Positions 1 through 54,169 of a DNA stretch of 64,000 nucleotides are shown here, one piece after another. The stretch is from Proteromonas lacertae (lineage: Eukaryota), in contig NGBS01000297.1 in the NCBI GenBank assembly GCA_002245135.1, positions 1 through 64,000 of the forward strand, written 5' to 3'. The position numbers and the translations under genes are program-made. Numbering within the stretch: position 1 is the first letter of the stretch; every line of letters starts with the position of its first letter. The notes under the pieces were generated by a model, which did no database searches, had not been told where the DNA came from, and was given only the letters and a program-made list of their open reading frames with translations.

Positions 1-3000
1 GTAGTTGTGAAGTCAATGATTCAATCTCAGCCTTTAGATTTTCTATCATTATATCACTTTCTTGTTTAACAAGTAACAATTCTGAATAATTATTTCTAAT
101 GTATAAATATTATCATGAAGTAGAATAATTTCTTCACTATCCAACATTACACTCATTTTCTTTCTTTGAATTTTCTTCAACTAGTTTCTGAATAGATAAA
201 AGTTGTTCTTTGAGATTTAATATTTCAGAATCTTTCTGATTAATTAAGTAATGATTTTCACTTTCATTTTCTTTCATTTTGTTACATAGTATTTCATTCT
301 CATCTTTGTATTTAGCTAATTCTTCTATTTCATTTTCCAATAGTAATAGTTGAGATTGTAATGATTTCATTTCACATTCTTTGGATGAGTTTTCATTTTT
401 CATTTCTTCTAATTTCTTCTCATTTTCTTCATTTTCATTTATCAAACTATCTAATTTTAGTCTTAAATCATTGATTTCATTCTCTTTTCCCTTTTCATCA
501 TCTTTTACTCTATTCATTTCATTCTTTAATATTTCTATCTCTTTTTCTTTATTCTCCATCTCTTCTTTGTATAGTTCGATACTCTCTTTATATTCTTTCA
601 ATTCAGTTCGAAGATTTTCCATCTCATTACTGTTCATCGATTGCATACTCTTACTAGAATTTAATAATGTCTCAAATCCATTTGATAATTCATTTAGTTT
701 CTTACTTAAATCATTCTTTTCTTCTATTATTTCTTCTTTTCTTCTTTTAATTCTTCATTATCTTTTATTGTCTTTTCTAATTCTTTTTTCATCTTTCATT
801 TTCTTCAACATTCATTTCTACATTCTCTTTTAACTCTTTATTTCCTTCTCTTTATTATCTATTTCTTCTTTTAGTTTATTCTTTTCTTCTTTCAGTTTCT
901 TATTCTTCTCAAGAACATTGTTCACTTTACTCTCTAAGTCTTTTTCATTATTTATTAACTTATCAATTTGTTCATTCAAATCATTGATTTGATTTTCATA
1001 TTTTGTCTTTTCACTTTCATCATCTTTTACTCTATTCATTTCATTCTTTAATATTTCTATCTCTTTTTCTTTATTCTCCATCTCTTCTTTGTATAGTTCG
1101 ATACTCTCTTTATATTCTTTCAATTCAGTTCGAAGATTTTCCATCTCATTACTGTTCATCGATTGCATACTCTTACTAGAATTTAATAATGTCTCAAATC
1201 CATTTGATAATTCATTTAGTTTCTTACTTAAATCATTCTTTTCTTCTATTATTTTCTTCTTTTTCTTCTTTTAATTCTTCATTATCTTTTATTGTCTTTT
1301 CTAATTCTTTTTTCATCTTTTCATTTTCTTCAACATTCATTTCTACATTCTCTTTTAACTCTTTATTTCCTTCTCTTTATTATCTATTTCTTCTTTTAGT
1401 TTATTCTTTTCTTCTTTCAGTTTCTTATTCTTCTCAAGAACATTGTTCACTTTACTCTCTAAGTCTTTTTCATTATTTATTAACTTATCAATTTGTTCAT
1501 TCAAATCATTGATTTGATTTTCATTTTGTTTAATAGTATCTTTACTTATTTCCACTAATTTCATCTTCTCTTCATTTAGTTCTTTAAATTCTTCATCCAA
1601 TTTCTGTATTTGACTTTCATAGTCTTGTATTAATGATTCTTTATTAATCTCAGCATTGTCAATTTCAGATTGTAATTCCTTTATTGCTTCTTCTTTAGAT
1701 TTCTCTATTTCTACTTTATCATTTTTCAAATCGACTATTTGTTTCTGTAATGAATCTATCTGTTTTTCATAATTCTCTTTTACTTCATTTTGATTATGTG
1801 ATAATTCGTTCATTTGTACTTTATATTCTTTAATCATTTTTTCATTGTTTTCTTTCTCAGCTGATAATTGTTCTTTCAAATTTTCTACTTCTTTCTCACT
1901 TCTTCACATTTTTCATCTGCTTTTTCTTTGTTTTGTTCTAATACATGTAATTGTTCAGTTAAAACTTCAATTTGACTGTTTAAATCAGTTTCTATTGATA
2001 ATTTCTGTTCATTCAATTCAGATAATTCTCTTTCTAAATCCTCAACTTTCTTCTGTATTTCAAATTCATTGTGTTTAGTACTATCTTTTATCATATTCAA
2101 TTCATTTTCTAGCTCATTTATTCTATCTTTATCTTCATGATTTGAATTTTCTAATTCTGATATTTTACATTCTAATTGTGTATTTGTTAAATGTAATGAT
2201 TGAATTTCATTTTCATATTCCAATTTCTTAGTGTTATTCTTTAGTTTAATTCATTGATCTGTTTATTTGAATTTTCTAATTCTGATTCTAATTCACTATT
2301 CTGATTCTTTAATGATTCTATTTCTTCAATATATTTCTTTTGATTATCATTTAAACTGTTGATCTTATTTACTAAATCTTTGATTTTAGTCTCATACTCT
2401 TTCTTTGAATTTTCTTTCTCATTTTCAGAGTTTTGTGTCAATTCTGAAATTTCTAATTTCAATTTATTATTATCTTCAGTCAATTTCCTATTTATCATTT
2501 GATATTCATTAATTGAGATTGTAAGATCATTGATTCTTTCATTCAATGTGTTTTCAGTCTCTGTTTTATTCTCTTGAACTTTCTTCAACAATTCTAATAA
2601 TTCAGCATTTTCATTCTCTACTAGTTCCATTTTGGATTTATTATTATTCTCTAATTTATTTTTTGATACTTCTGTCTTTTCAATCTTTGATCTAGATTCT
2701 TATTCAATTCTTGAAGTTCTTTTATCTGTTTTTCTAATGTCTCTTTTGCTAATTCTAATAAATGTTTTTCATTCTCTAATGATTTTAACTGCATTTGGTA
2801 ATTATTACTATTCACTTCAAATTTCTTTCTTTCATTTTCACTTAATTTCAGTCGATCTTCCAATTGTTGTATTTTCTCTTTATCTTTTGTAATTTCTTGT
2901 TCAAATTCTTCTTTTTGAGTTTGAATTTCAGCTTCTAATGTGTCAATATAATCTTTAGAATGAGTTGATAAAGAGGTAAACTCCTTTGTTACTTTTCTTA

Positions 3001-6000
3001 ACTTATCTTTTAATGAAGTTATTATATTCTCATTTTCCACTTTATATCATTATATTCTTTTTCAAGAAGTGATTTACTGGTTAATAATTCACCATTTTCC
3101 TTTTCTAACTTATTAATTTGTTCTTTTAATACAATTTCTGTTTGTTCTTTTTCAATTTCATATTGTTTGATCTGTTCTGATAATTCACTATTTTGAGTCT
3201 GTATTTCTGCATAATTGATATTTAATGATTGTATTTCTTCATTTAATCTGTTAATTACTTCATTTTTCTTATTCATTTCTTCTAATGAATCTTTATAATA
3301 CTTATTGGAAGTTAAATTTTGTTCTTCTAATGATTTTATCTTCATTTCATATCTGATTCATATTCAGATATTTTCACTTTCAATTTATTATTTTCTGTTG
3401 TTAATGATGTTATTGAATCGAACTGAGAATTGTTCTTCTTCTCTAATGTCTTTAATTCTGCATCTTTTGTTATTAAATCACTTTGCATATCAGATATTTC
3501 ATGTTGTAATACACTATTGGTTTTTTCTAAATCAGAATATTTATTACTCAATTCATTCATTTGATTTTGTTGGTCTTGTAAAGTATTTTCTATTGTGTTT
3601 TTATAATTATCATATTCATTCTTTATTGTTAATAATTGAGATTCTAAATTAGCGATTGTTGTTTCATTTTGTTGTATTTTATAGCATAATCTGAATTTTC
3701 AGATTTATAATTATCTATCACTTGGTTTAATGATTCTATTTCTGACTTTAGATTATTGATTTCTTCATTTCTCATTGTTTCATTTTCATTGTTCTGTTTT
3801 GTTATTTCTTCTAACTTCTTCTCATTTTCTTCACTTTCATTTACTAAGCTTTCTAATTTTAACTTTAAATCATTTATTTCATTATCTTTTTCTTGGAATT
3901 TCTCATTTTCATCTTCCTTTACTTTATTATTCAATAATTCTATCTCTTCTTTATACAGTTTCATACTCTCTTTACAATCATATAATTCATTTTGAAGATT
4001 CTTCATATCATTATTACTATTAGATAATTCACTAAGTTTACGACCTATCTCATTCTTATCTTCTTTCAATTTTTCATTTTCTTCTTCACTCATTTGAAGA
4101 TTCTCTTTAAGTAGCTTTATTTGATTCATCAATGATTCTTTCTCTGAATCTAATCTATCATTTACATTATTTATCTCTTTTTCTTTATTCTCTAATTCTT
4201 CCTTTAATCTATCAATCTCATTCTCATAATTATCTTTCATTTCACTTATTTTTATCTCATTTTTCATCTTCTTTCTTTTGAATATCCAACTCAAAACTGA
4301 TTCTTTTCATTTTCTAATACTTCATACTTCTCTCTCACTTCCTCTAATTCGTGTTTTTAATTCTTCAATTTCACTATCTTTGATTTCACCTAACTCTATC
4401 TTTTGCGCAGTTAAAGCTTTGATATTCTCTTCTAATTTGATTATTTCATTTTCATATTTCTCTTTCATATCATCATATAAAGTTACTTTGTATCTTGATT
4501 TTATCTTCTAATTCACTTATTCTCTCTTTTTCTACCTGATTATTCTTCAATAATTCTATTTCATCAGATAATTCTTTGATTTTTCTTTCATATTGTTTGA
4601 TACTCTCATTATTTTCTGAATTTATAATTCTATTTTCTCTTCTAATTCTGTTTTGTGCTGTGATAATTGAGATAAATAATCTATTCAAATCGAGTAATCT
4701 TTTCTTCGACTACTAATTCTATAACAACTATAATCATTTGAAATTATATCCAATTGAGATTTCAATTCATTCACTTCTTCAGTATATACTATCATTCTTT
4801 ATCTTTTAATTGTATCAATTTAACATTCAGATTTGTTATTTCTTCTTCATCTTTTATAATCTGAGATTCATACGATGATTTTATATTCTCTATTTCCTCT
4901 TCATTTATTGTATTTACTTTTAATTCCAATTCATTCTTCAATGATTCAATTTCTGATTTTAAATCAATTATTTCTCTATTCTTCTTTTCATTTTCATTTG
5001 TTAGATTCTGTAATCTTGATTGATGGCTTGATTGTAATGTGTTTTGAGATTCCAATAATTCTTTTAAATTATTTTCTAATTCACTTATTCTTGATTTTGA
5101 TGTATTATTTCATCTTCTCTTTATCTTTCTCTAAATTAGTATTCTTTGATTCAAATCATTGATCATTTCTTCTTTGTTTGTCATTGATTCTTCATACATT
5201 GTTATTTTCTTTAGTTTTTTCCTCATTTTCCTTTGATAGAGATTCTATTTTTTCATTTAACTTGACCAATTTGTTCATTCATTACTTCAATATCATTATT
5301 AGATGATTTTAATGTAAGAATTTCCTCTTCTAATTTCTTTTTCTCTTCTTCAAATTGATTTAAATTATTCTTATATTCATTCTCTAAAGATTCTTTTGAT
5401 TTTCTTAATTGATCTATTAATAGTAAAGCATTTTGTACTCTCTTGTTGAAGTGAATCTAATTGTTTCTTATAAGTCTCTTCCAATTCATTTTTCTCATCT
5501 TCCATTTCTTTTAATTGATTTTCCAACTTTTCATTTAATAATTTCAACTTCTTATTTCATCCTTATTATTGTTCTTTTCCTTATTATCAGTTTCTTTATC
5601 TTTATTCTTTATATACTCTCTTATCTTATACAAATCTTCTTCATAATCATATTCTGTAGTTGTATTTACTATCTTTACAACTATCATTCTGTGTATGTAA
5701 TAAACTCTGATATATATCATGAATAGATGTTTTAATATCTTCATTCTCATTAACTATATTGATTAACGATTTCTCCTGATTTTCATATTCTAATTGTTTC
5801 TCAGATAAATGCATTTTCTAACATTTCTTTATCATTTTGTAATTGAGAAATTAATAATGATTGTTCTTGATAAGAAGAAGTTGGAATTGTAGTGGAATTA
5901 GATATATATACAATTGGTTCAAATGTTATGAGTGATAATAATATTGGATTAGTTGATTCTGATGTAGATATGGTTGATAATGATGTTGTGTAATTAGATG

Positions 6001-7937
6001 GTGAATTTGGTGGAGTTATTTTACCTGTTGCTTGTATTTTAATCAATTCATTATATTGATTTTGTAGTTTTTGGCAATGTTCTTGTGATTTGAAGTATAA
6101 TTCTTTATAATTATCATCATGAAGAATAGATTGGTTTGGTGTAATACTATTGAACATACTAACTACATTCCCTAAACCAAATGTGAGTTTAACATCTTTA
6201 TTATTATTATTTTGTTGTTGTTGTTCAGTTAATCTTTCATTATTTTCAGTGATTAAATCTAATTGTTTTCTTTGTTCATTTAAAGTATTAACTAATTCTT
6301 CATTCTCCAACAACATATCTTCATAATTCTGTTTCAAGCTGTTCTAATTCTTCATCTTTTTCTTCTTCTTTCTCAATCGTTATAAAATCATATATGTTAT
6401 ACTCATAATTCATATTATTACTATTTATTAATTGAAGTATCCATCATTGTTGATTGATCTAATTGTGTTTCTAAATCATTTACTGTAGTTTCCATTTTAT
6501 TCATATTGTGATTTAATCTATCATTTCTTCTTTTAACATCTTGTGGCTTTGAGATAACTCTATATATTTCTTCTGTATTTCATCTACAGCAATATCAAGA
6601 TCTTCATTATCATCTCCATCTAATGACATGATTGGATAATGAAGTGTTTTTAGTAAAAGATTTGATGATGGTTTGGTTGTTTGTTCAAGTGATAGTTTCT
6701 TATAAGCAGAATGTAGTGTTAAATACTTTGAGGATATTTCATTATACATTTGATAATATTTCTTATAATCATCCAACTGTTTTGATATGACTTTATTCTG
6801 CGATTTTAATTCATTAATTTCCTTTGATTCTGTTGTATGTTTATATTTATCTAATAATTCATCATATTTAACTTCTAATTCATCATATTTCTTACTCAAT
6901 TCTCTATTTTCTTCTAATAATTCCTCTTTCTGTTGTTTTAACTCCATAAAATCACTAGAGTCCATTTCATTGGCTAAAGATGTGTCTAATTGTCGTGTAT
7001 TGATGTTGACATTATTGAAGTCTCCATTATTGTCTTATTCTTCTCATCTATTACATCTTTTAATGCTGAAATTAGATCCGTTTCTCTCAATTTCTCTACT
7101 TTTTCAGGTGAAGATGGTAATTCTTCTAATTGCTTTTTATACCTTTCAATTATTTGTCTATTGATTTGTTTATCTTTTTCATATTCATTCATTAAGTCGG
7201 AATATTGTTGTTCATAAGAATGTGTTATTTCTTCTATTGCTTTATCTTTTTCTGTTAACTGTTGTTTTAATATTTCTATTTCTGTTTCTGTTCCTAGACT
7301 TCTATGTTTATTGTTATTTGCCTTTTTCAATTCTTTATCTTTTCTATCCAAATCTTTTCTCATCTCTTTTAATGTCTTTTTAAATGCTTCATTCTCTGTA
7401 ATCATTTCTTTCTTTTCATTTTGTAAATTAATTATTAGTTGTTTATCCAATTCTGATTGTGATTTTAATTCATTATATTGTTGTTGTAACTCATTATAAT
7501 CATTTGTTGTTTCATATTCGGATATTTTTCTTTCTAATGAATTATTCATTGTTGTTACAGATTCAAATTGTGATTCAAGTACTTGTATTTGATTCTTTAA
7601 AGTTTCATTTTCTTTTAATTTTTCATTTAATATATTCTCTAGATTTGAATAATCATCATCATTATCATCATTTGAAGTTAAAGATTTGTTATTTTCTAAC
7701 TGTAAATTCTGTTGTTTCAATTGACTTAATACCTTTTCACTTTCTATAATTCTATTATTCAATAAATCATTAGTTTGTTTCATTAAATTATATTGTCTTT
7801 CAATGTTATTAAACTGCTGTTCTAATGTATATTTTTCAGAAGATATTTCATTACATTTATTACTCCAATTATCTATCTCATTGATTAATATTTCATTCTT
7901 CTTCTCTAAATCAATACATCTCTTTGATACTTCATCC

Positions 7938-9073: not shown

Positions 9074-10586
9074 TTATTCGTCTTTCTTGGATGGTTCGAA
9101 TGCAACATCTTGAGCCATTAAAGGAACAGCTAAATCTAGTCTTGGATGTGATGTTTTAAGATCGTCTAGTATTAAAAGGAATAAAATAATATATATATAC
9201 TAACAGTAATTCCTTTACCGTTATTCATTTTATTCATTTCTTCAATGACAAATTTAGTAGCATAAGTTGCTGCTAATATATCTTGGGTACTTCCAATTTC
9301 AGAGATAGTATGCATATTTCTAATTGGATAGCCAATACTAGTAACAGCGATATCTTTACTAGCTAACACACCAGCCATAGCATCAGTACCAGTGTCACCT
9401 CCAGCTCTATCAATTTGAATTGGAATATCATTTTCTTTAGCAATTTTTTTAAACTATAAAATATATATGAAGTAATATATACTAAAGTGTTTAAATAAGG
9501 ATGACAAGGTTGCTCCTTCGGAGATAGTAAATCCATTTCCCATCTTTAAAGGAGGTAAATGACGACCACCTAAATCAGGAGCAGCTTCATAATCATGATT
9601 CACTTACAAAACAGTTAAAGAAAATAATATAAATAAAAAATGTTAAGTAAAAAAAAATGGATATATCAGTTGCTAGAATCACATCTGGGTTTAATTCACC
9701 TGCAATTACTCTGCTTCCAAATCTTCCAATCTCTTCATATGGTACACAAGCAAATAAACAACGAATATTCTTAATTGCTTCAGTATTAGTGGAAAACAGT
9801 GCAACCAACTAATCAAATAACAATAAAATCAATAATATATACTTTAGCAGCCATAAAGCATCCTAAGCCATTATCTAAGTAAGCACCACTGAAAGTATTT
9901 GGAGCAAATGCTGGTTTGATGGGTCTATCAAAAATTATTGGATCACCCGGTTTAAGTCCAACTTTTTCTAAAAACTTCTTACTTTCTTTCTCATTCATAC
10001 CCAATTCAATGTAGATTTGTTTCTTTGTAATACCTCTTTCTCCTGATATTACTGAAGGTTCTGCGAAATGAATTGCACCTAATGCTTCTACTGTTGCACC
10101 TGTTATTACTCTATAAGATCCTAGTTTTTCAGTATCTTCTGTAAATATCTTTACTGGATTTCCTATTAATGTTGCTGGTAACATTGAGTCAGTACTTACC
10201 CATATTTTACCATCATTACCTATTTGTTGTACTTGCATTCTTATTTTATCAGCATGTCCAACAACCATAACAGTAAACATGTCAGTTTTATTTGGATTGG
10301 TATCTAGAACAATACCTGCATTACCTTTGAATGTGTGAATAGCCCAATCATTTTTCATGATTGATTTAAAAAATGGTTCAATAACTCCAAATGTCATACC
10401 ACCCTCCATTCCAACTGGACTATTTTAGATTATTTGATAAACTAAATACCTTGGAGCTGCTAAAATTTGTCTCATCAAATCAAAATCACCAGCTGACATT
10501 GGTTGCTTCCATGGTTTAACTCCATTAGCACTAGAAAATGCTCTAAATGAAAATAGTTTGCTCAATTTCGTAGAAGCTCTTAACAT
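9074..10586 (-). CDS. M42-family aminopeptidase with N-terminal mitochondrial-type presequence
   Basis: Spliced MLRASTKLSKLFSFRAFSS..LAAPSPVGME..GHADKI..AYLDNGLG..EEIGRFGS..ATDVNHD..GTDA..PIRNMHT; four GT-AG introns plus one AT-AA intron; one apparent +1 error near 9507. Confidence 0.85.
9604..9664 (-). other. U12-like AT-AA intron, 61 nt
   Basis: GAT|ATATCCATTT...TTCTTTAACTGTTTTGTAA|GTG restores ATD-VNHD. Confidence 0.8.
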
Positions 10587-19300: not shown

Positions 19301-20360
19301 TTAATTTGATATGTTCTTCCCCATTATATCTTTACATACTTTCCCAACATCAGTACCATACAAGAAAACTGCAACAATAACCAAAATTGTGCCAATAGTA
19401 AATACCAAAGTAACATGAAAATCAAACAAATAAATTGACAAAATACATGACAATACAATAGACACAGAGGTTGCAAATCCTTTCAATATATTATCTGCAT
19501 ATTTAATAACCACAGCCACTACTAAACCACCAAAAGCTTGGATTGAAATACATAACCATACCCAGTTGTTATAACCTAATAAAAAACCTTTTTCTGAGAC
19601 GATAGCCCTTTCTCTATACCAAATACCCATAAAGCAGAAGATTAAACTAAATACAGACAATTGAATATTCCTAATCCAAATTGATGATTTTGCTCCTTTT
19701 AATAACTTTTCGAAATATACACCAGCAAATCCTGATGTTAAAGATGATATAATAACACATGTCATACCCCACCAGTATATACCACCAGCTGGATCAGGAG
19801 CATTTCCTTTAGGTTGTACTAAAGCAACGCCACCTGTCAATATTACTAGACTTATCCACTGATAACCTGTTAAATGCTTACTTAATACTAACACTGAGAA
19901 AAGAGCTGTAGTTAAGATTTTGAGTTGATAAGTGACTTGATATGTGGCTGCATCTAAATTACTTAGAGCAATGTACAATAAATTATTCTGTAATGTGTAT
20001 AATCCTGATGGAATGATTAACAATAAAGTATCACGAGGTTGATCTATAATATCCTCTTTCACTCTCTATTTTTGTTATAAAATGCAATAATAATGAATAG
20101 TAAATACTTTTAGCATTCCTCCAATACTATTTTCTTGATATGTTATCATCACAATACAAGTTATAAGTTTAAATAACTCACTAAACACAACAGCTGTTGA
20201 TGTTAAATATCTACACAATATAAACCATGACAATACTTATCACCAGGAATAGTTCTGGTATAACGCATTACAAGAACCTATTTGCGATAATAATAGAAAA
20301 ATATACTTGCGCTGTGTTCTGTATAACCAATATGATCAAACTTAAATACTTGATATTCAT
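19301..20360 (-). CDS. Nucleotide-sugar transporter, SLC35A family
   Basis: [69 protein letters not shown]; three introns. Confidence 0.92.
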
Positions 20361-20424
20361 GTTAGTGAAGCAAAATAAAAATTCGAAATGGAATAAAAAA
20401 TATCCGTTCTATGAATATTTAAAA

Positions 20425-21538
20425 ATGAAAAAGAAGGTTATATTTCTGGTACTTATTTCAATTTTATCATCAATAAAGGTATAAAATGCAACTAATGCTA
20501 TTTTTAATAGACAATTTTGTTTAATTATACTCAAACAAGACCTGGTGAGCAGTATATCAATAATAACGATATTGAATAGATTCATATCATCCACAGCAGT
20601 GTTATTGACAGAAATATTAAAAGTGGTTGTTTCTTGTTTTGCGATTTTTGTGATGGAGTGGAAAAATAAAGGATTTGTACATGTATATACAACAAAATAT
20701 CATATATTAGTGTATCAAAAAAGAAATAATAGGCAAACCTTATGACACATTAGAATTACTTCTGCCTTCTTCTTTCTACACTCTTCAACAGTTTTTGTTG
20801 TATATTAATATGCTTATATTCGTAATAGATATATAGCTCTAAGAAATATTGATGCAGCCACTTACCAAATAACATTTCAACTCAAAATCCTAATAACAGC
20901 AGTTTTTTCTGTCATTTTAATGAAAAAGAAATTATCCTTTACTCAATGGTTTAGTTTATTATTATTAATGTGTGGAGTAGCATTAGTTCAACCATACAGT
21001 ATATATATAAATAAATATCTTTACATAAATAGAAGTAAATAGAATTCCAGAAGGAAATTATTTGATTGGAATTACTTGTGTAATTATTTGTTCATTAACA
21101 TCAGGATTTGCAGGAGTATATTGTGAAAAAATAATGAAAAATTCCAATCATAATGTCTGGATTCATACGATACAAATGTCAATATGGAGTATATTACTGT
21201 CATTTATTGGAATGTCTTTTTATGATTTGATGATAATAAGTAAAAAAGGATTCTTCTTTGCTTATGATCATTTAGTGTGGCTTTGTATTTTAGTTCAGTT
21301 ATTGAATGGATTTATTGTGATATATGTTATTATTTATGCTGATAGAATATTGAAAGGTTTTGCTACTTCAATTTCTATAATAATCTCATCTGTCATCTCC
21401 ATGATATTATTTGATTTTAAATTCACATGGAATTTTCTCTTAGGCTCTATTATTGTTATTTTGTCAAGTTATATGTATGGAAGAGCTAAATTAGAAAAAG
21501 AAAAAGTAGATCAATTAGTTTTACCAAAACATGAATAA
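20425..21538 (+). CDS. Divergent SLC35A nucleotide-sugar transporter paralog
   Basis: [43 protein letters not shown]; five introns. Confidence 0.85.
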
Positions 21539-22040
21539 TGTATAATATATAACCTATGTAATTTAATATTTATATGAAACATTGTTTGTTTTATTTGTAA
21601 ATAAAGAGATATTAACAGTTTTCATAATAAAATATCAAACTGTAATTCAAACTTTCATTATTAAATATTCCATTATTCTCTGTATATAAATACTGGAATG
21701 TCATAAATACATTATAAAATGACTATTATTTTTAATATAGTAAATATGAGAATAACTATTCACTCAAATTGAATAGTTAGTTTGTATTTTGTAAAACAAT
21801 AATGAATATGAAGAAATTGGTGTGTTATTCCAATATTATTATATATAGTAGATAAAAAATCAGAATACATGTTATTATAAACTTAAAGAACAATAAGTGT
21901 TGTTCATTGTATTAAATAATTAGTAAATTACAAGAAATAATGAATTATATATATATGACAACAAAAATGTCTCAAAATGATTGTGTTTTAACTCAATATT
22001 GTAACATTACAATTTTGTCTCATTTCTTTGTTGAATAAAA

Positions 22041-25128: not shown

Positions 25129-26026
25129 TTATCTGAACTTTACATCACCAGGTAATCCACCTAATGCACTTTTAAGAGCTTTAGGATCTGCCCATTGTGA
25201 TGCTAAATAATCATCTTCATCATCTTCTGTTAATTGTTTCATTTCTTCCTGTTTCTTATAATATAACGCCATCATTTGTTTTCTTTCTTCATCACTTACA
25301 GCTGGCTGTCTTTGTGGAGGTCCAGATCCTTTCTTTTGGATTTTTGCAATTATCATTGTTTTTTCATTTTTTCCAACTCTGTCACCCACTGTTTGGTTTC
25401 TCAGAAATTCTTTTCCTGCCCACCATAATGTGCATGTTTCTGGATCTAAATAACTTAAAGAAGCTGAAGTTCCTTCAATCTCTTCTTTTCCATCAAAAAT
25501 TTGTTTTACTGGATCATAATCTGGTATACCCATTGGATAAGCTATTGTCACAGCACCTCTTAGGTTATCCATTACATTTTTTATTCCTTCTTCAGTTAAT
25601 GCAACTTTATTTAATGCCTGATTTCTTGATATATATGCTTTTGCTTCTTCGCATGTTTTATTTATTACTTTTGCTAAATCTGGACCACATCCGTTACCAG
25701 TTCTTTTCCCAAGGGGATCTTCTTCGTAAAATTCATTCTTTTCGATTGGATCTTCAGAATACTATTTATAATAAATGAACAATAGAAACTATACTTTATC
25801 AAGACCTTGCTTTTCTGGAAGTTTAGCAGGTCCATGCTTCCCTAGCCGTTCGCATTCAACAACTAATCTTTCTATTTGATGTCTACTATTCTCTATATTA
25901 GCCTATTTCGAATAATATTACTTTAAAATATACCAAACTTCTTATAACAGCATCATTACTTGCTTTGCATGTAGTTTCAAAAATAAATTGGTCAGTATCG
26001 TCGAATTTAATGTGAATAACAACCAT
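25129..26026 (-). CDS. CFAP298: CFAP298 (C21orf59) family protein
   Basis: MVVIHIK..QFIFET..KHGP..DPLGKRTGN..LRGAVTIAYPMGIPDYDPV..LWWAGKEF..VGKNEKT..YYKKQEE. Confidence 0.85.
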
Positions 26027-37021: not shown

Positions 37022-37661
37022 GATTGAAGATTTTGAGAGATTAGATGAATATTAAAAATTCAAGAAATAATGGAATGAATGATTTTTAGAAATCATTGAT
37101 CTGAAATATAATTGGATAAAAGCTGATGAAATTATTTTTGATCTTTGACATCTAACATGTGTTGAATGTTTGAAATAGATTTTTGAGTTTATTTCATTAC
37201 ATAGAGTTTATTTCATGCTACTAATTTTAAGAAAGTAAGGTTATAGAGAGTATTGTAGAAACACATCCTACAGTATAGTAATATTCAATCATAAGATAAT
37301 CTTTTAAATCTAGTAATAAAAATCAATCGGTATTTACCAATAATATGAATTATAAGTGTGATGAAGAAGAACAGAGTAAGAATTCTTTACTCATCCCCTA
37401 CGAGTAGTAGAATCACATTTTCCAATACGGTAACTACGAGATAATATTAGTAATAAAATTACATATGTGATAAATATCTGGAGGTAACGAAAAAAGGAAA
37501 AGAAAAAGTGATTATAATCAAAAATCGCAGAAACGATTTGAGTCTAACATTTTTATCGTGTAAAAAATCAGCATTTTTATGTATAGTGACTCAAATTTGT
37601 CTTGATAGCCAAAGAATTAATAACTATTGGATCTTTTTAGATTTTATATCTATTTAAGATT

Positions 37662-40600
37662 ATGAGAGTTATAGCTCTTATTTTGCTCTTAGCTATATGT
37701 ATTTCTTATTATCTATATTGTATACAGGTTATGCTCAAGGACCAAGGTGTACTTACAACAATGGTAATACAGATTTCTCATTCGATGTAAATCAAGATGT
37801 AGAAATAATTCCTTCCTGTTTACCAACACCTACAAATGCAGCTTCTGATCCAGCTTTACCAACTGGTCTGTATTTAGGAAGTGATGGTTCAATTAAAGGT
37901 GCTCCAACATCTGCATTACCAAAAACAACATACACCATCACTTTTACAGGTCCTACAGGTGATACATCCACAACAACAATCTCAATGTCAGTAACTGCTC
38001 CAATTCAATCTTGTACTTATGGTGTTACTGACAGAATTCAAATCCCAATCAACACTTATACAATTATTCAAGGTCCAAAGTGTGATCCACAAGCTACTTC
38101 ATTCGAAAAGCAAACAAACAACATTCCAGCAGGAATGACTTTAGATCCAGTGACTGGTGCAATTAGTGGAACTCCAACAACAACTACAAGAGCTATTACA
38201 ATCGTTGTAACAGCTAAAAACACTGCTGGTTCATTACCAGTATCTGTGAATGTAATTGTAGTTGATAATACTCAATTACCACCTGGTATAATGGCTAGAA
38301 TTTCTCCAAATAAATATGCTGATCCAGATAAAGAAGGTGCAAAATGTCCATCAACTTATGATCCTTACTTATATGATTTTGAAAATGGAAATATGAATCC
38401 AATCACCACTTATTATTTCACAGAATTAAATCACCACTTATTATTTCACAGAATTAAATCATAATTGTGATGGTGATTGTCCTGCTGCTTTTCCTCAACA
38501 GAAATATTTTGTAAGATTTGATGGTATTATTCATGCTCCAGTTACAGGTACTTACTCATTTAGAATTTATGTAGATGATTGTGTTTGGTTGTTCTTAGAT
38601 AATAATTATACTCACCCAGTTGCTGCAATTCCAGCTACTAAAACTGTTGTTATTAGATTTGAAATGACTGAGGGAGATCATGCATTTACTGCATTACTAT
38701 ATCAACTTGATGGTCCTACTCAACTACGTATAGAATGGAAGATATTTTCAGCTGGTATAATGTATTATGAAAATTTAGGTGGTGAATTTATATCTGGTCC
38801 ACAACAACCAGTTCAATTCTTAACTTATCCATCCAGTGATTATATTATTAGAATTCATACAGGTGTAAATATCCAACCAAGTTATGAAGGAAGTCCAACT
38901 GAATGGTTTATTGAACCAGCATTACCAACTGGTTTAACATTTTCTAATGGTAGAATTACAGGTAATCCATCAGTAGAAAAAACATCTACAAAATATAAGA
39001 TTACTGCCAAGAATGGTGTTTCAACAACAACAGCTGATATTTATCTTACAGTTGTAACTTTATCAACAGAAATCTTAAAACCAGGTATTATGGCAAGTTA
39101 TTATTCGTGTAGAAGTACTTCTTATGGTAATGTTGATAGTTGTGAAGGTCAAACATTAATAGCAAAACATGTAGTTGCTGCAATTGATAGAGAAAAATCA
39201 AGTAAAACATTTGATGGTTTAATTTCCAAATATGGAACAAATTTGAAAGTGGTTTATGAAGGTTATATCAATTTCCCAAATTCAGGAACTTATATTTATG
39301 GAACTGATGTGTTAGATGCTGGTAGAGTCAGATTTACAGCTGAAAATTCTCAAGATGTTAGCGAAGTAACAGCTCAAAAAACATGTGGAGAAAAGGAATT
39401 ACAAACTTGTGTTCTTGAAACAAGATCAAGTCAAAAAACATTAGGAACAAGTGAAGGTCCAAGAGCAATTGAATATACCTATTTGAAATCAAATATGAAT
39501 CCATTGAAACAAGTGCAATTATTCTGGTCAGGAGGTCCAAATATGATGGAAAAGAATTATATTCCATCTGATTATTATTATTATTTACCATCTTCATCCT
39601 TATCTTATGGAACTCCAGTAGCTATTTACATGTCTCAAATTCAACTTGATGCAAATAGACCAATTATTTTTATGTCAAACAAAATATATCAATCATTCAG
39701 TATTTATCCAACATTGCCAGCTGGTTTAAGATGTGATTCAAGAACTGGTGTAATCTCAGGAACACCCACAGTTGATTCATCTTACAGAACAAAATATACA
39801 GTAACAGCCACTTCAACTGATAGAACAAGTGTATTAACAGCGACAGTAGAAATTGAAGTAGTAAAATATGTAGCTCCAATTCCAATTGATTATACAGGTA
39901 GAACAATAAATGGAAAAATAGGAGTAGCAATCGAAACTGTTGCGCCAGTAACAGCTCCAACAGGTGTGAATTATTATGTAGAAGGTGGATTACCACTTGG
40001 TTTAAGTGTAGATTCAGCCACAGGTGCAATAAGTGGTGTTCCATTAGAATCAGCTTCAGGAACCATAACAATCTTTGGTCAATCTGATGGTGGTGTTACT
40101 CAAGCATTAGTTCCAATTCAAATTGATTCATGTGAAACAGGTAAATCATTTGTGAGAATGGTATTTACTGGTGGTGCAAATCTTGGAAATGATCCCAAAC
40201 AAGTAATGAAATTAAAAACACTTGATGGAAATGTTGTAATGGAAAGAAGGGATAGTGCATTTGGTACATATGAAATATACCAATGTGTTGATGATAGTCT
40301 TTATCAAGTGACATTAGGTCCAAATGTATATTCAGTTCCAGGTGAATATTGGGTTTATGGTGAAGGAACAAGTATTTACAGATATGGTAAATATATATTG
40401 AATGATAAAGTGAAAGGAAATGATGCTCCAGAAAATGTTGTAGTTCAATTTTCAGTTACTATTGGTTCTTCTTCATCACCTCAAATCGAATATCCAGATG
40501 GTGATGGTGGTGTTTATACTATTCAAAGAGGTATTGGTGCTGTTATATCACCAATTATTAGTTATGCAGCTGATTACTGCTCAATTAATCCAGTTAATCT

Positions 40601-42944
40601 TCCTGATTTATTAGTATTTGATAATAAAACAGGAACAATCACTGGTAATTCAATGTATAACAATCCAGATGGTTTAACATTTACAGTAACATGTACAAAT
40701 AAAGCAGGATCTGGAACAACTCAATTAACAATCAAAACAGAACCGTGTCCAGAAGGATCATTCCCTGCTCAAATTGCTGCTAGTTCAACAGGTGATAATT
40801 TTAATGGTTGGTTTGCTTATGGTTACTTTTTCAGAGGATTAGAACCACCAGAGGATAAACAAGATTATATAGTTAATTGGGATTTTGGTATTTATCCATA
40901 TACAACAACAAAAAGATCATTCTGTATGTATCCAGATAATTATACTTTAAGTCTTAGTGGTGAAATGGGAGGAAATTATTGGGGCTCAAATGCTTTGACA
41001 ATTTCTTTAGCTGATGGTGAGATAATTTATAATGGTAATGAACAAAAGACACAAGTATTTGATGTTGCTTATATAAGCCCACCAAATGCAGCTTGGGAAT
41101 ATAGTCCATCAGCTAATAATAGAAATTGGTATAATAACTTCAAACCAGGTGAATGGGAATCTTATATTCCAGGAAGTTATCCAGATAGAGGTGATAGAGT
41201 TTATACAACTTATTACAGAACAACATTCACAATTCCTGATGATTTTGATATTAGAAAGATAGCTGCTTTTGAAGCTGGTTTTAAATATGATGCTGGTATT
41301 GTAGCTTATTTAAACAACAAAGAATTCTACAGAAGAAATGTTCCAGCAAATCAACAAGCTAATACTTATGCCACAGAAATATACACAGGAAGTAATATAA
41401 TGTTAAGAAGAACTGGTGCTTCAGCTGATATATTACAAAATGGTGTGAATTATATTGCTGCAGAAGTTCATAAACACAGAAATAGTGTAAATATCAATCC
41501 ATTTGCTGCTTTCTTCAATTATATAGTTGCTGATTGTAACAGAAGAAGTGTAAGAAGTATGGAAGTTACAAACAACTTTGGATCAGAATTTGTTTATCCA
41601 GATGAACCATTAACTAATTTTGTTGATGGTAATAAGAATACAAAAGGTTATGTTAGATGTGGTTGTAATGGTGTAGAAATTACATTCATGTGGCCAAATG
41701 GAAGATCAGAATTCTTCAACAAATATACTTTAACAACTGGTGATATGTTGAAGGATGGTAAATATCCAGTTAGAGCTCCATTCTCATGGGATGTATATGC
41801 AACAACAGATGGTGGTAAAACATGGAAATTATTAGATTCGCAAGATCAAATTATCTTCAGAGATCCAGATAATCTAAATGATGAAACAAACTGGCAAGCA
41901 AAACAAGTAACAAGAGAATTCTACATTTATGGTGTTTCTGAATCATTTGATGGTGTATTAATCAACTTCACAACAACTGGTATTCCTGGTTTAGCACCAT
42001 GTGAGCCAACTATGCCAGGTTATGATGGTTTAGAATTGATGGAAGTGACATTTGATGCTTGTAACAATAAATTATGTGCTCCACAAGGAGAATGGACTGC
42101 AACAGTAGCTGGAAGTGAATGTGTAAGAGAATGTCCAGAAGGTTATAGTGGTAAACAAACTAGAATGTGTAATGATTTAGGTGGAAGTCCAACATGGGGA
42201 CAAGAACCAGTATTCTCACTTGTTTGTTCATTAAAGATGATTAAAGATTTCGTTATTAGTAATGGAACTTCAACAGTATATAAAGATTTTGATGTGGCTG
42301 GATTAGTTCCAACATTTAGTGTATATGGTGCTGAATTAGAATATGCAATTACTCCATCTCTTGAAACAACAGTTCCAGGATTATCATTCAATACATCAAC
42401 TGGTGAAATAACAGGAACTCCCAAAGCAGAAATGGCTTTAACCACATTCAGAGTAACAGTTAAAAATCCAGTTTCTGATGAATTATATGGAAATATTTAC
42501 ATTCGTGTAGATACAGTTAGATGTATGACTGATGGTTCATGGCCAGCAACTGAACAAGGTAAAACAGTAACAATTCAATGTACAGGATCAACAAGAACAA
42601 TGACAAGAAGATGTACAGCTGGTATGAATCCTCATTGGGAGACTTTAGAAGATAATTGTTCAGCAGAAGAAATAGTGAGTAAGAAAACCTCAACAGCAGT
42701 TATAGTAGTTGCTTCAATAGCTGGTGTAATCTTCTTATTATTGATTGGATTCTGTGTATATGCTCGTGCTAGTTCTGCCAAGAAGAGAGCTACTAGAAGA
42801 GGAATGAGAACAGCTCAAGCACAAGCAGCTAAAGCTGCAATGGAAGCTAGAGAGAAAGCAGCAGCTGGTGGTGAACCAGCTCCAGAGAAAGCCACAGCTG
42901 CAGCTCCAAAAGAAGAGAAAGGATTAGCAGCTGAAAGTGAATAA
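37662..42944 (+). CDS. Large type I membrane protein with putative-Ig (He_PIG-like) repeats, PA14-like domains and Cys-rich modules; broken by a 28-nt duplication
   Basis: Signal MRVIALILLLAICYA (one intron); LPxGLx..TGxISGTP repeats; VRFDGIIHAPVTGTYSFRIYVDD; TM AVIVVASIAGVIFLLLIGFCVYA. Confidence 0.85.
38401..38456. repeat. Exact 28-nt tandem duplication
   Basis: aatcaccacttattatttcacagaatta occurs twice in tandem. Confidence 0.95.
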
Positions 42945-43933: not shown

Positions 43934-45365
43934 TTAAGCTAAATGGCTTAATAATGTGCTATTTTCTGGCAAATATTCAGGATGATCTGTTATAATCTGT
44001 TTAATATCTGTAAACTTTAATTTCACCAAACATGAAGAACTTGCAGCTATATTTGACGCAATTGCTATAATCTTTTTCACAATATCAATTTTCATTGAAG
44101 GAATTAATGCTATAATTGTTTTAATGAATGGTTTATTAGCATAAATATCATAATTATCATACAACTTCAATGACAATTCAATATAATCAATCAACAACAG
44201 TTGAATATGTAGTTTTACATTTGGAAATAATTCAATCACTTCATTGGTTATGTTATTCAACACATCAGTATGTTCTATTTTTTCACCTTTTCTATCTTCC
44301 ACAACTAAGCTAATCATCGAATTAAGACACTCAATTGTATTTACTAAAACTTCATTTTTTGGTGATTTCAATAATTCTATTATATACTCTTTAAATTCTT
44401 CATTATCTTTAATCATTTTCAAATATTCTTCATTCTTACTCTTTAATAACATCGGAACTAATTGAATAGCTGATAGTAATAACATATTAGATGATTTCTT
44501 TGGATTTAATAAACTAATTAATAATAAAATGAACTTATTATCAGATATATTCATTAAATCAACAATAAAGTCTCGATTTTCAGATAATATTTCATATAAC
44601 AATGTTAAATCAGTTATTAATACATCTTCTTTCTTTTGATCTGTTTGTGGTTTATTCTCATCATCAGTATTATTGATATTATTATTCATAATTGCTAGTA
44701 AAGTATTCGTATTAATTATAAAATTCTTTACTATAAATGGTAAAAATGATTTTATCAAAGATCTTGGCATTTTATCAGATACATTACTTAATAACCATAA
44801 ACTATTGAATGATATTTCTTCATCATTACTTAATTTATCATTATTTATTACTTTTATTAAATTTTCAAACATTTTTGAATTGATAATAAATTCTATTGGT
44901 GGATTTTCATCTAATGTTAATAGAGATCCGATATTCCATATTGATTGTTCTACTACACGTTTATCATTATCTAAGAATAAGTTTATGAATAGCTCAATTT
45001 CTTTATTACTTATTATTTCAGTGTGTTAAATAAAATTAAGAAAAGTTGGTTGACAATAGAAGAAAGTAAAAAAGATATCTCAATAACACCTAGTGATATA
45101 CATTTTCCAAGTAGGTAAACACAATAATATTTCATATCAGCGTCAGAATCTGATAAGTGACTTACAAGAATTGGAAATATTCCATTTCCATTAATATCAT
45201 CAATTGGAATTGCTGTTTCATTTTTCTGAGATAGAAGCTTCAAAAATAAAAGACCTCTTTTGCAATTTTGAGGTTCTGGGTCTTTAACAAGCTTCATTGC
45301 TTGATCCATCTAACAATAAATCGAATGGTTAATACCTTTTCTTTAGTAAATACAAGGCCGTCCAT
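43934..45365 (-). CDS. ARM/HEAT-repeat protein (divergent importin-alpha-like)
   Basis: GIFPILVSHL, RVVEQSIWNIGSL, NSLWLLSNVS; one GT-AG and one AT-initiated intron. Confidence 0.65.
45026..45078 (-). other. U12-like AT-AA intron, 53 nt (an AT-AC end 3 nt further is also in frame)
   Basis: GAG|ATATCTTTTT...TTTTCTTAATTTTATTTAA|CAC joins two ORFs in frame. Confidence 0.7.
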
Positions 45366-53018: not shown

Positions 53019-54169
53019 ATGAATCCATTGGAACAATTAAGAAGAAAACATCAAGTTGAAGAAGAAGTACCTACTTTTGCTGGTCAAGCTGTTATGATAG
53101 AGTATTTTTTGTTGTTTTTTTATCATATACAGTTCATCTTGTCATGATTACAAAGCAACACCATATACAGATTGTTTTGATGGTAAAAGAGAGATAAAAA
53201 TACCATCCTCCAAAAATATATCCTTTTCTTTTCATTTATACAACTTAAAAGTGTTATTTTTAATTCACATTTAAACATTTAATGTATATTTTGGAGGTAA
53301 AAGTGGTCCAGCCTTATTTTTACTACATGGAGCTGGTTATACAGGTGCTAGCTATGCAGAATTTGTTGTATACAACACAACTATGTTATATCAAATAGAA
53401 AGAAGCCAAAAAATACAGTCGTTGTTTCGCCATAGACTTCAGAGGACATGGTTTAACTAAAACAGACAATCAACTCGATTTATCAGCAGAAACTTTAACA
53501 AACGATACAGTCAAAATAATCCAATTCCTCTGTACTGAATTACCCAATGATACACCCTCCATTATAATAGGTCATAGTATGGGTGGAGCAATAGCGACAA
53601 GAGCAGCAGCAACAGGTGAAATACCAATGTTAAAAGGATTAGTAGTGATTGATGTAGTAGAAGGAACAGCAATACCAGCATTAGTACATATGAATACAAT
53701 ATTAGCGAGTAAACCAAAGAGTTTTTCAAGTATAGAAGAAGCTATAAAATGGGATATTCAAAGTCAAACATGTAGAAATCCATTATCTGCAAAAGTGTCA
53801 ATGCCAACTCAAATTGTTAAAGATAGTAAAACTAATCAATATGTATGGATTACACCATTAGAAAAGAGTGATAAATACTGGAAGGATTGGTATATTGGTT
53901 TAAGTGATTTATTTTTGACTGTTCCTGCTGCAAAGTTATTGATTTTAGCTGGTAGTGATCGATTAGATAAACCATTAACAATAGGACAAATGCAAGGTAA
54001 ATATCAATTATTAGTAATGCAAGGAGTTGGACATTGTATTCAAGAAGATGCTCCAGTTGAATTATCTAAGACAATATTTAGATATTTAAGCAGAAATGGC
54101 TTGACTGAGAATCAAGATGATGAATTAGCTAAAAAGTTGGAAAGAGCTAGACAAATGATTCCACATTAA
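53019..54169 (+). CDS. PPME1: Protein phosphatase methylesterase 1
   Basis: LLHGAG, DFRGHG, GHSMGGAIA, IDVVEGTA, DRLDKPLTIGQMQGKYQ, GHCIQED. Confidence 0.95.
53218..53274 (+). other. U12-like AT-AA intron, 57 nt
   Basis: AAT|ATATCCTTTT...TTTTTAATTCACATTTAA|ACA; perfect U12 donor; restores KN-TFNVY. Confidence 0.85.

Follow-up and report, generated by a model that had tools for sequence, protein, structure and literature searches.

On balance, we favour the view that positions 9664–9604 (minus strand) of the window, meaning the whole 64-kb stretch of DNA analysed, are a U12-type AT-AA intron in the gene for a predicted mitochondrial M42 aminopeptidase, that the minor spliceosome removes it, and that it was gained after the gene had entered eukaryotes. 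In this account, which follows the established mechanism of U12 introns, U11 and U6atac would recognize the ATATCC donor, U12 would pair with the branch motif TTCTTTAAC, and the distance from the branch point would set the 3′ end, so that AA could replace AC. AA would have become the usual minor-intron end in this AT-rich genome, and splicing would bring Val287 next to Asp286, which is predicted to bind metal.

The intron and the gene that carries it

The window has 27.5% G+C and contains eukaryotic genes (histone H2B, uS4, WD40, kinase, and CFAP298). The CFAP298-family gene lies at 25132–25761 (minus). At 37658–42941 (plus), a gene nearly without introns encodes a large protein that combines PA14 with numerous putative Ig domains, and two nucleotide-sugar-transporter-like genes stand head to head at 19304–21540 (the second was read by eye). 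Major-type intron candidates in the window mostly begin with GTAT, and an Rfam scan of the 64 kb gave no match.

The M42 gene spans 10586–9074 on the minus strand and is interrupted by four GT-AG introns (30, 34, 29, and 35 nt) and by a fifth, longer one (61 nt). These five inferred spliceosomal introns and the eukaryotic neighbour genes place it in a nuclear genome. Exon 1 (10450–10586) encodes a predicted mitochondrial presequence, whose first 26 residues include five Lys/Arg, five Ser, and no Asp/Glu. Intron 1 (10420–10449; GT-AG, 30 nt, phase 2) separates it from exon 2 (9843–10419), which encodes His101 and Asp228. Exon 3 (9665–9808), which follows intron 2 (9809–9842; GT-AG, 34 nt, phase 0), contributes Glu263, Glu264, and Asp286. 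Beyond the 61-nt intron 3, exon 4 (9483–9603) has a surplus base at about 9492–9495 that breaks the frame and is probably an assembly error. Intron 4 (9454–9482; GT-AG, 29 nt), exon 5 (9201–9453) with His374, intron 5 (9166–9200; GT-AG, 35 nt, phase 1), and exon 6 (9074–9165), which ends in a TAA stop, complete a protein of 440 residues with an X at the exon 4 break. For intron 5, a boundary at 9204 was rejected in favour of 9200.

Membership in the M42 family is indicated by exons 2 and 5, which score 47.4 and 41.7 bits against PF05343 (cut-off 23.2); exon 3 alone scores 18.7 bits against the same cut-off. Aligned to TET structures by way of the homologue P0001, the protein has the full set of His101, Asp228, Glu263, Glu264, Asp286, and His374, which we take to be five metal ligands and the catalytic Glu. 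The 410–440-residue M42 subfamily to which it belongs passes no NCBIfam equivalog cut-off.

Intron 3 (9604–9664, minus; 61 nt, phase 0) begins with the donor ATATCCAT (9657–9664), which agrees with the U12 5′ splice site RTATCCTT at seven of eight positions, the mismatch being at +7. Its branch motif TTCTTTAAC (9614–9622) resembles TTCCTTRAC, equals the branch of the human PPME1 intron, ATCTTTAAC, at eight of nine positions, and stands ahead of the last 10 nt of the intron. When the intron sequence was shuffled 200,000 times, an ATATCC start arose 37 times and a branch-like motif at the correct distance 4052 times; chance does not account for the two signals. The intron closes with TGTAA and is flanked by the GAT (Asp286) and GTG (Val287) codons of the motif ATDVNHD, two residues found unchanged in all 120 full-length homologues among the matches listed (of 1285).

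A profile of homologues ranks the AT-AA boundaries first, with 96.6 bits, among 1661 open in-frame donor/acceptor pairs, and these termini fall within the AT-AN or GT-AN pattern of U12 introns (the AT-AN class is described in PMC8280824; this and the other papers are cited for the parts available to us). The best GT-AG choice reached only 60.1 bits, and GC-AG, GA-AG, and AT-AC choices were likewise outscored. Use of the adjacent AG (9666–9603) would pair it with the donor ATATATC, delete the Asp, and lower the score to 87.4 bits. The first-pass annotation had placed an AT-AA intron directly after the Asp of ATDVNHD, had argued that the adjacent AG would require a non-consensus donor and remove that Asp, and had called the intron minor-type; all three proposals are borne out, the last of them strengthened by a second minor-type intron in the window, in the PME-1 gene described below. 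Intron 3 is thus well supported as a real minor-type AT-AA intron.

Age of the intron and descent of the gene

Minor introns are held to be ancient and seldom created. A gene of bacterial descent sets a dated floor for the age of any intron within it, and the locus would make the question of creation testable with orthologues from named taxa. We consider it probable, from comparison with homologues, that intron 3 was gained on this lineage, and likely that the gain postdates the entry of the gene into eukaryotes. The Asp/Val site is unbroken in all 120 top homologues among the matches listed (of 1285). We also compared 29 fragments that we call eukaryote-like, a label of our own. Seven end before the site, one has an intron at +1, and 21 are unbroken, so that the site is uninterrupted in 21 of 22 informative fragments; some of the 21 may derive from transcripts, from genes without introns, or from organisms that lack a minor spliceosome. 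It is also unbroken in the metagenome locus L002, and an exon 3 search for short relatives returned no candidate.

The neighbourhood of the site has its own breaks. P0152, P0371, and P0372 share an insert of 47 residues that can be read as a GT-AG intron in phase 1, lying 1 nt downstream of the Asp/Val site. In P0372, from translation only, the insert reads Asp/Gly-Lys...Pro-Ala/Val, that is G/GT..AG/TN, with its acceptor on the window's adjacent AG. This coincidence is one ground for an unlikely alternative, in which an early eukaryotic intron stood here, was kept as U12-type in this lineage, was shifted by 1 nt and became major-type in P0152/P0372, and was lost elsewhere; a variant, included in the same estimate, has a major intron converted to minor type here. 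Such an old intron would sit well with the grouping of the gene with many eukaryote-like sequences, with an AU test that does not reject the query beside P0152 (p-AU 0.347), with the retention of ancient minor introns in this lineage (PME-1), and with the argument in PMC11347168 that intron class conversion goes both ways. It is countered by the density of breaks in this part of the gene: homologues have ten distinct inferred breaks, curated by eye, within a 99-nt stretch that includes the site, which gives a neighbour within 1 nt a chance of about 0.26. The exact site is moreover intron-free in all homologues read, including the 21 unbroken fragments, intron sliding is at most very rare according to PMC10639083, and the P0372 intron is a putative one, read from translation.

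Introns do turn over in this gene. Close relatives form the cluster P0121 (17 members, 94% identity over exon 2), in which the intron 2 break is common to 15 of 15 listed members, and the cluster P0139 (five members, 80% identity) has two inferred short GT-AG introns inside the window's unbroken exon 2. Read-through in this 80% identical lineage (P0139, P0242–P0245) suggests that its introns are apparently only about 21–22 nt long.

A gain on this lineage may have taken either of two forms: intron 3 may have been created afresh, or a major intron may have been converted to minor type. If the gene entered after the last common ancestor of eukaryotes, the intron has to postdate that ancestor; if it entered earlier, an ancestral intron would require many losses and no retention at precisely that site. 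The phase of the intron agrees with a pattern in Blastocystis ST1 for which PMC10639083 considers recent gain possible, a proposal that rests on a 49% share of phase 0 there. Phase 0 is nonetheless no sign of youth here, because both control introns of the window are in phase 0 and one of them is ancient. The earlier claim of new minor-intron creation is thus partly supported: gain is likely and the site is unbroken in 21/22 fragments, but the transfer-based argument behind it is weaker than supposed. The proposed comparison of intron positions gave a similarly mixed picture: none of the homologues read is interrupted at precisely this site, and P0152/P0371/P0372 have an inferred GT-AG intron displaced by one base.

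That argument had taken the M42 gene to be a prokaryote-type gene, probably acquired laterally by the lineage, a premise that our searches and trees do not sustain. The top matches of the protein are 58–65% identical and are bacterial where named (among the matches listed). A GTDB scan yielded 65 loci at 53–61% identity and one short piece at 71%, all titled prokaryotic; a metagenome scan yielded three loci at 49% identity and no close relatives; and an Atlas search returned bacterial clusters only, a result that does not define the range of the family. The profile search (117 matches) and the homologue search also brought up many fragments whose N-terminal extensions are basic and poor in acidic residues, or whose tails resemble introns. 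Among 20 eukaryote-like homologues picked by hand, 19 carry no more than one acidic residue among their first 25. The stretch before the first conserved motif is 35–93 residues long in all 20 picked and 43 in the window protein, as compared to 14–37 in 119 of the best 120 homologues (of 1285). The subfamily is thus present in other eukaryotes or eukaryote-like sources: these presequence- or intron-bearing fragments, P0213, whose Picozoa EukProt label is the sole eukaryote source name in the set, and the metagenome loci L002 (310–1659) and L003 (2860–4209), which are intronless M42 genes with a presequence. Both lie beside Lon, and the best matches of the adjoining Lon are mitochondrial.

Mitochondrial-type presequences are seen in the eukaryote-like M42 proteins P0141, P0162, P0189, P0258/P0359, P0261, P0262, and others, and many eukaryote-like fragments end after one Met-Gln motif, as if they shared an intron there. 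Five further homologues (P0266, P0270, P0272, P0274, and P0276) form a clade (99) with a giant-virus look, and several of them carry long tails that are acidic or rich in lysine; P0274 had no match in a viral scan.

Phylogenies bear on the same point, and the query nests in no bacterial clade in any tree computed. A 41-row tree, with rows picked from about 440 sequences and with long rows and far outgroups omitted, separates the query and 17 eukaryote-like rows from 23 bacterial-labelled rows with support 80/93. In a quick mixture tree the query joins 16 eukaryote-like rows at 89. The eukaryote-like grouping falls apart when four long outgroups are added, an 85-row quick tree does not settle the placement of the query, and AU tests do not reject three bacterial-clade placements (p-AU 0.148, 0.231, and 0.198). 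The phylogenetic check that the first-pass annotation had proposed therefore cuts both ways: two trees join the gene to eukaryote-like rows with no bacterial nesting, and the AU tests still allow a bacterial sister.

These placements leave a rather improbable route, in which the lineage obtained the gene by its own transfer from bacteria, so that every one of the five introns, intron 3 among them, would be new here. The bacterial names among the best matches and the AU results would accommodate it. So would the introns themselves, which, P0121 and P0139 aside, are not confidently seen in any eukaryote-like homologue (P0322 offers one possible match to intron 2), and the distribution in the available part of PMC12129017 Table S5, where the M42 domain is counted three times in Proteromonas lacertae, zero times in eight Blastocystis genomes, and not in Cafeteria. 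It is opposed by the lack of bacterial nesting in every tree, by the two trees that unite the gene with 16–17 eukaryote-like rows, and by a kind of presequence common to 19 of the 20 hand-picked eukaryote-like homologues. We thus regard the M42 gene as probably an old, patchy eukaryotic gene of bacterial descent, as opposed to a recent private transfer. The eukaryote-like M42 proteins would apparently constitute a widespread and undescribed mitochondrial peptidase of protists; our literature searches, from which most subscription papers fell outside, found no paper on M42 in these protists.

The AA ending

Two further introns in the window appear to share the AT-AA termini of intron 3. A window-wide scan for the build of intron 3 found two donors, as compared to 0.1 per shuffled window (six of 60 shuffles had one). 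The second marks an intron of the PME-1 gene at 53218–53274 (plus; 57 nt, phase 0, donor ATATCCTT), a U12-type AT-AA intron that serves as a positive control. The exon 3′ of it aligns from Thr66 of human PME-1. The human PPME1 intron is a U12-type AT-AC intron with the exon flanks Lys-Asp/Thr-Phe and the branch ATCTTTAAC (PMC8280824 supplement), and the supplement of PMC11347168 also classes it as minor. Because the Thr66 start matches these flanks, the PME-1 intron occupies the same position as its human AT-AC counterpart. This conserved position indirectly supports the expectation of U11, U12, U4atac, and U6atac genes in the genome.

The third intron lies in an importin-alpha-like gene at 45026–45078 (minus; U12-like, donor ATATCTTT, phase 0, AT-AA, 53 nt), a candidate first noticed while frame changes were being checked. 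An AA end (45026) and an AC end (45023) are both in frame. The AT-AA choice gives a Trp-to-Phe spacing of 25 residues, as in importin alpha 7vps, and the AT-AC choice gives 24, one short, so that ARM spacing leans slightly towards the AA end. The looser scan that covers this intron produced nine matches against 5.9 expected, which is not significant alone, and KPNA genes had no match in two human supplements.

All three minor-type introns in the window thus read best as AT-AA. Among conserved minor introns, AT-AA makes up 1.117% in animals and 2.958% in plants (PMC10639083), and for two unselected AT-AA cases the plant rate gives p ~9e-4. As 3/3 introns read AT-AA and one of them is orthologous to a human AT-AC intron, these observations suggest that AA is the usual minor-intron end of this lineage. 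A further-reaching account, which we put forward as a conjecture that could well be wrong, is that the lineage, which probably stands next to Blastocystis, has replaced AT-AC by AT-AA throughout its minor introns and still creates new ones, including M42 intron 3 in a gene that eukaryotes obtained from bacteria.

The quality of the assembly bears directly on these termini. Probable errors lie at about 36880, 47307, 9492–9495, and 1800–7100 (all minus) and at 38445 (plus), and besides frameshifts in H2B, the kinase, the M42 gene, and a long gene for a coiled-coil protein (1–7000), they include a stretch of about 25 nt that occurs in duplicate. Under a script filter, 13 of 18 inspected junctions lack a low-GC GT-AG candidate; two of the 13 are introns by eye and one is the importin-alpha-like intron. 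Given such indels, a single intron terminus could be wrong. The M42 intron might then be an ordinary AT-AG or AT-AC minor intron that lost its G or C, and a G lost from AAG/GTG would yield the observed sequence in a window where even histone H2B and M42 exon 4 carry indels. We judge this very improbable, since it demands a lost base at the final position of two or three separate introns, a repetition that we infer to be unlikely. It is scarcely credible that the M42 gene is a decayed pseudogene whose insert is not spliced, as the frameshift in exon 4 might hint, since every predicted metal ligand is intact, 94% identical relatives exist (the 17 members of P0121), and like frameshifts also strike essential genes of the window.

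AT-AA minor introns are already known as such. Their apparent prevalence across a lineage, with a control anchored in a human gene, is to our mind a stronger result than the gain of intron 3. Searches of the literature by title and abstract, with most subscription papers outside their reach, found no report of a lineage dominated by AT-AA minor introns. Introns of this kind would escape annotation that expects GT-AG or AT-AC, and an AA-dominated lineage would illustrate how the rule by which the minor spliceosome sets the 3′ end can change. If the switch and the ongoing creation are true, the birth of minor introns could be followed in a second lineage besides Physarum, one in which the 3′ rule has changed.

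Comparison with known systems

At the protein level, the gene product has the same Pfam match and the same His/Asp/Glu-Glu/Asp/His set as characterized M42/TET aminopeptidases (PF05343; PDB 4x8i, 2pe3, and 1y0r). It differs from them in belonging to the 410–440-residue subfamily, here with a presequence and five introns.

The A-type U12 introns of animals and plants likewise have an ATATCC donor and a branch near the 3′ end, and AT-AA is their commonest non-canonical pair (PMC8280824, PMC10639083). In contrast, AT-AA amounts to only about 1–3% of those introns and to 3/3 in the window, where the introns run to 53–61 nt and the signals have lost some C.

A closer parallel is provided by Blastocystis ST1, which also has short, A-type-rich, and phase-0-rich minor introns alongside major introns of about 30 nt (PMC5608401, PMC10639083), although 77% of its minor introns are AT-AC. 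The PA14/Ig protein of the window also recalls Blastocystis (PMC5608401 section 8; PMC10639083). Unlike the window, which has both genes, eight Blastocystis genomes are without M42 and CFAP298 in the available part of PMC12129017 Table S5; for Proteromonas lacertae, the table gives a CFAP298 count of 1 and lists U11/U12 25K and RNPC3-family proteins. The CFAP298 gene hints at a flagellate or a deeply branching lineage, and with moderate confidence we assign the organism to the Blastocystis–Proteromonas group; a comparison of uS4 with PDB entries gave no placement. Proteromonas does not appear in the portions of the text and supplement of PMC10639083 at hand. The sequence TGTTTGTT occurs at 21583 and 49793 (plus), where it follows the stop codon of a gene resembling sugar transporters and that of uS4. 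It was rejected as proof of Blastocystis because only two of its 14 copies in the window (6.25 expected) are placed at gene ends, 3′ of a stop on the sense strand.

For the creation of minor introns, the relevant comparison is Physarum polycephalum. PMC10639083 describes very little evidence of such creation outside Physarum, with a suggestion only for Blastocystis. In Physarum, U12 intron creation is documented, AT-AA accounts for 27% of non-canonical minor introns, and more than 20,000 introns carry a proposed transposon signature (bioRxiv 10.1101/2020.10.12.336362).
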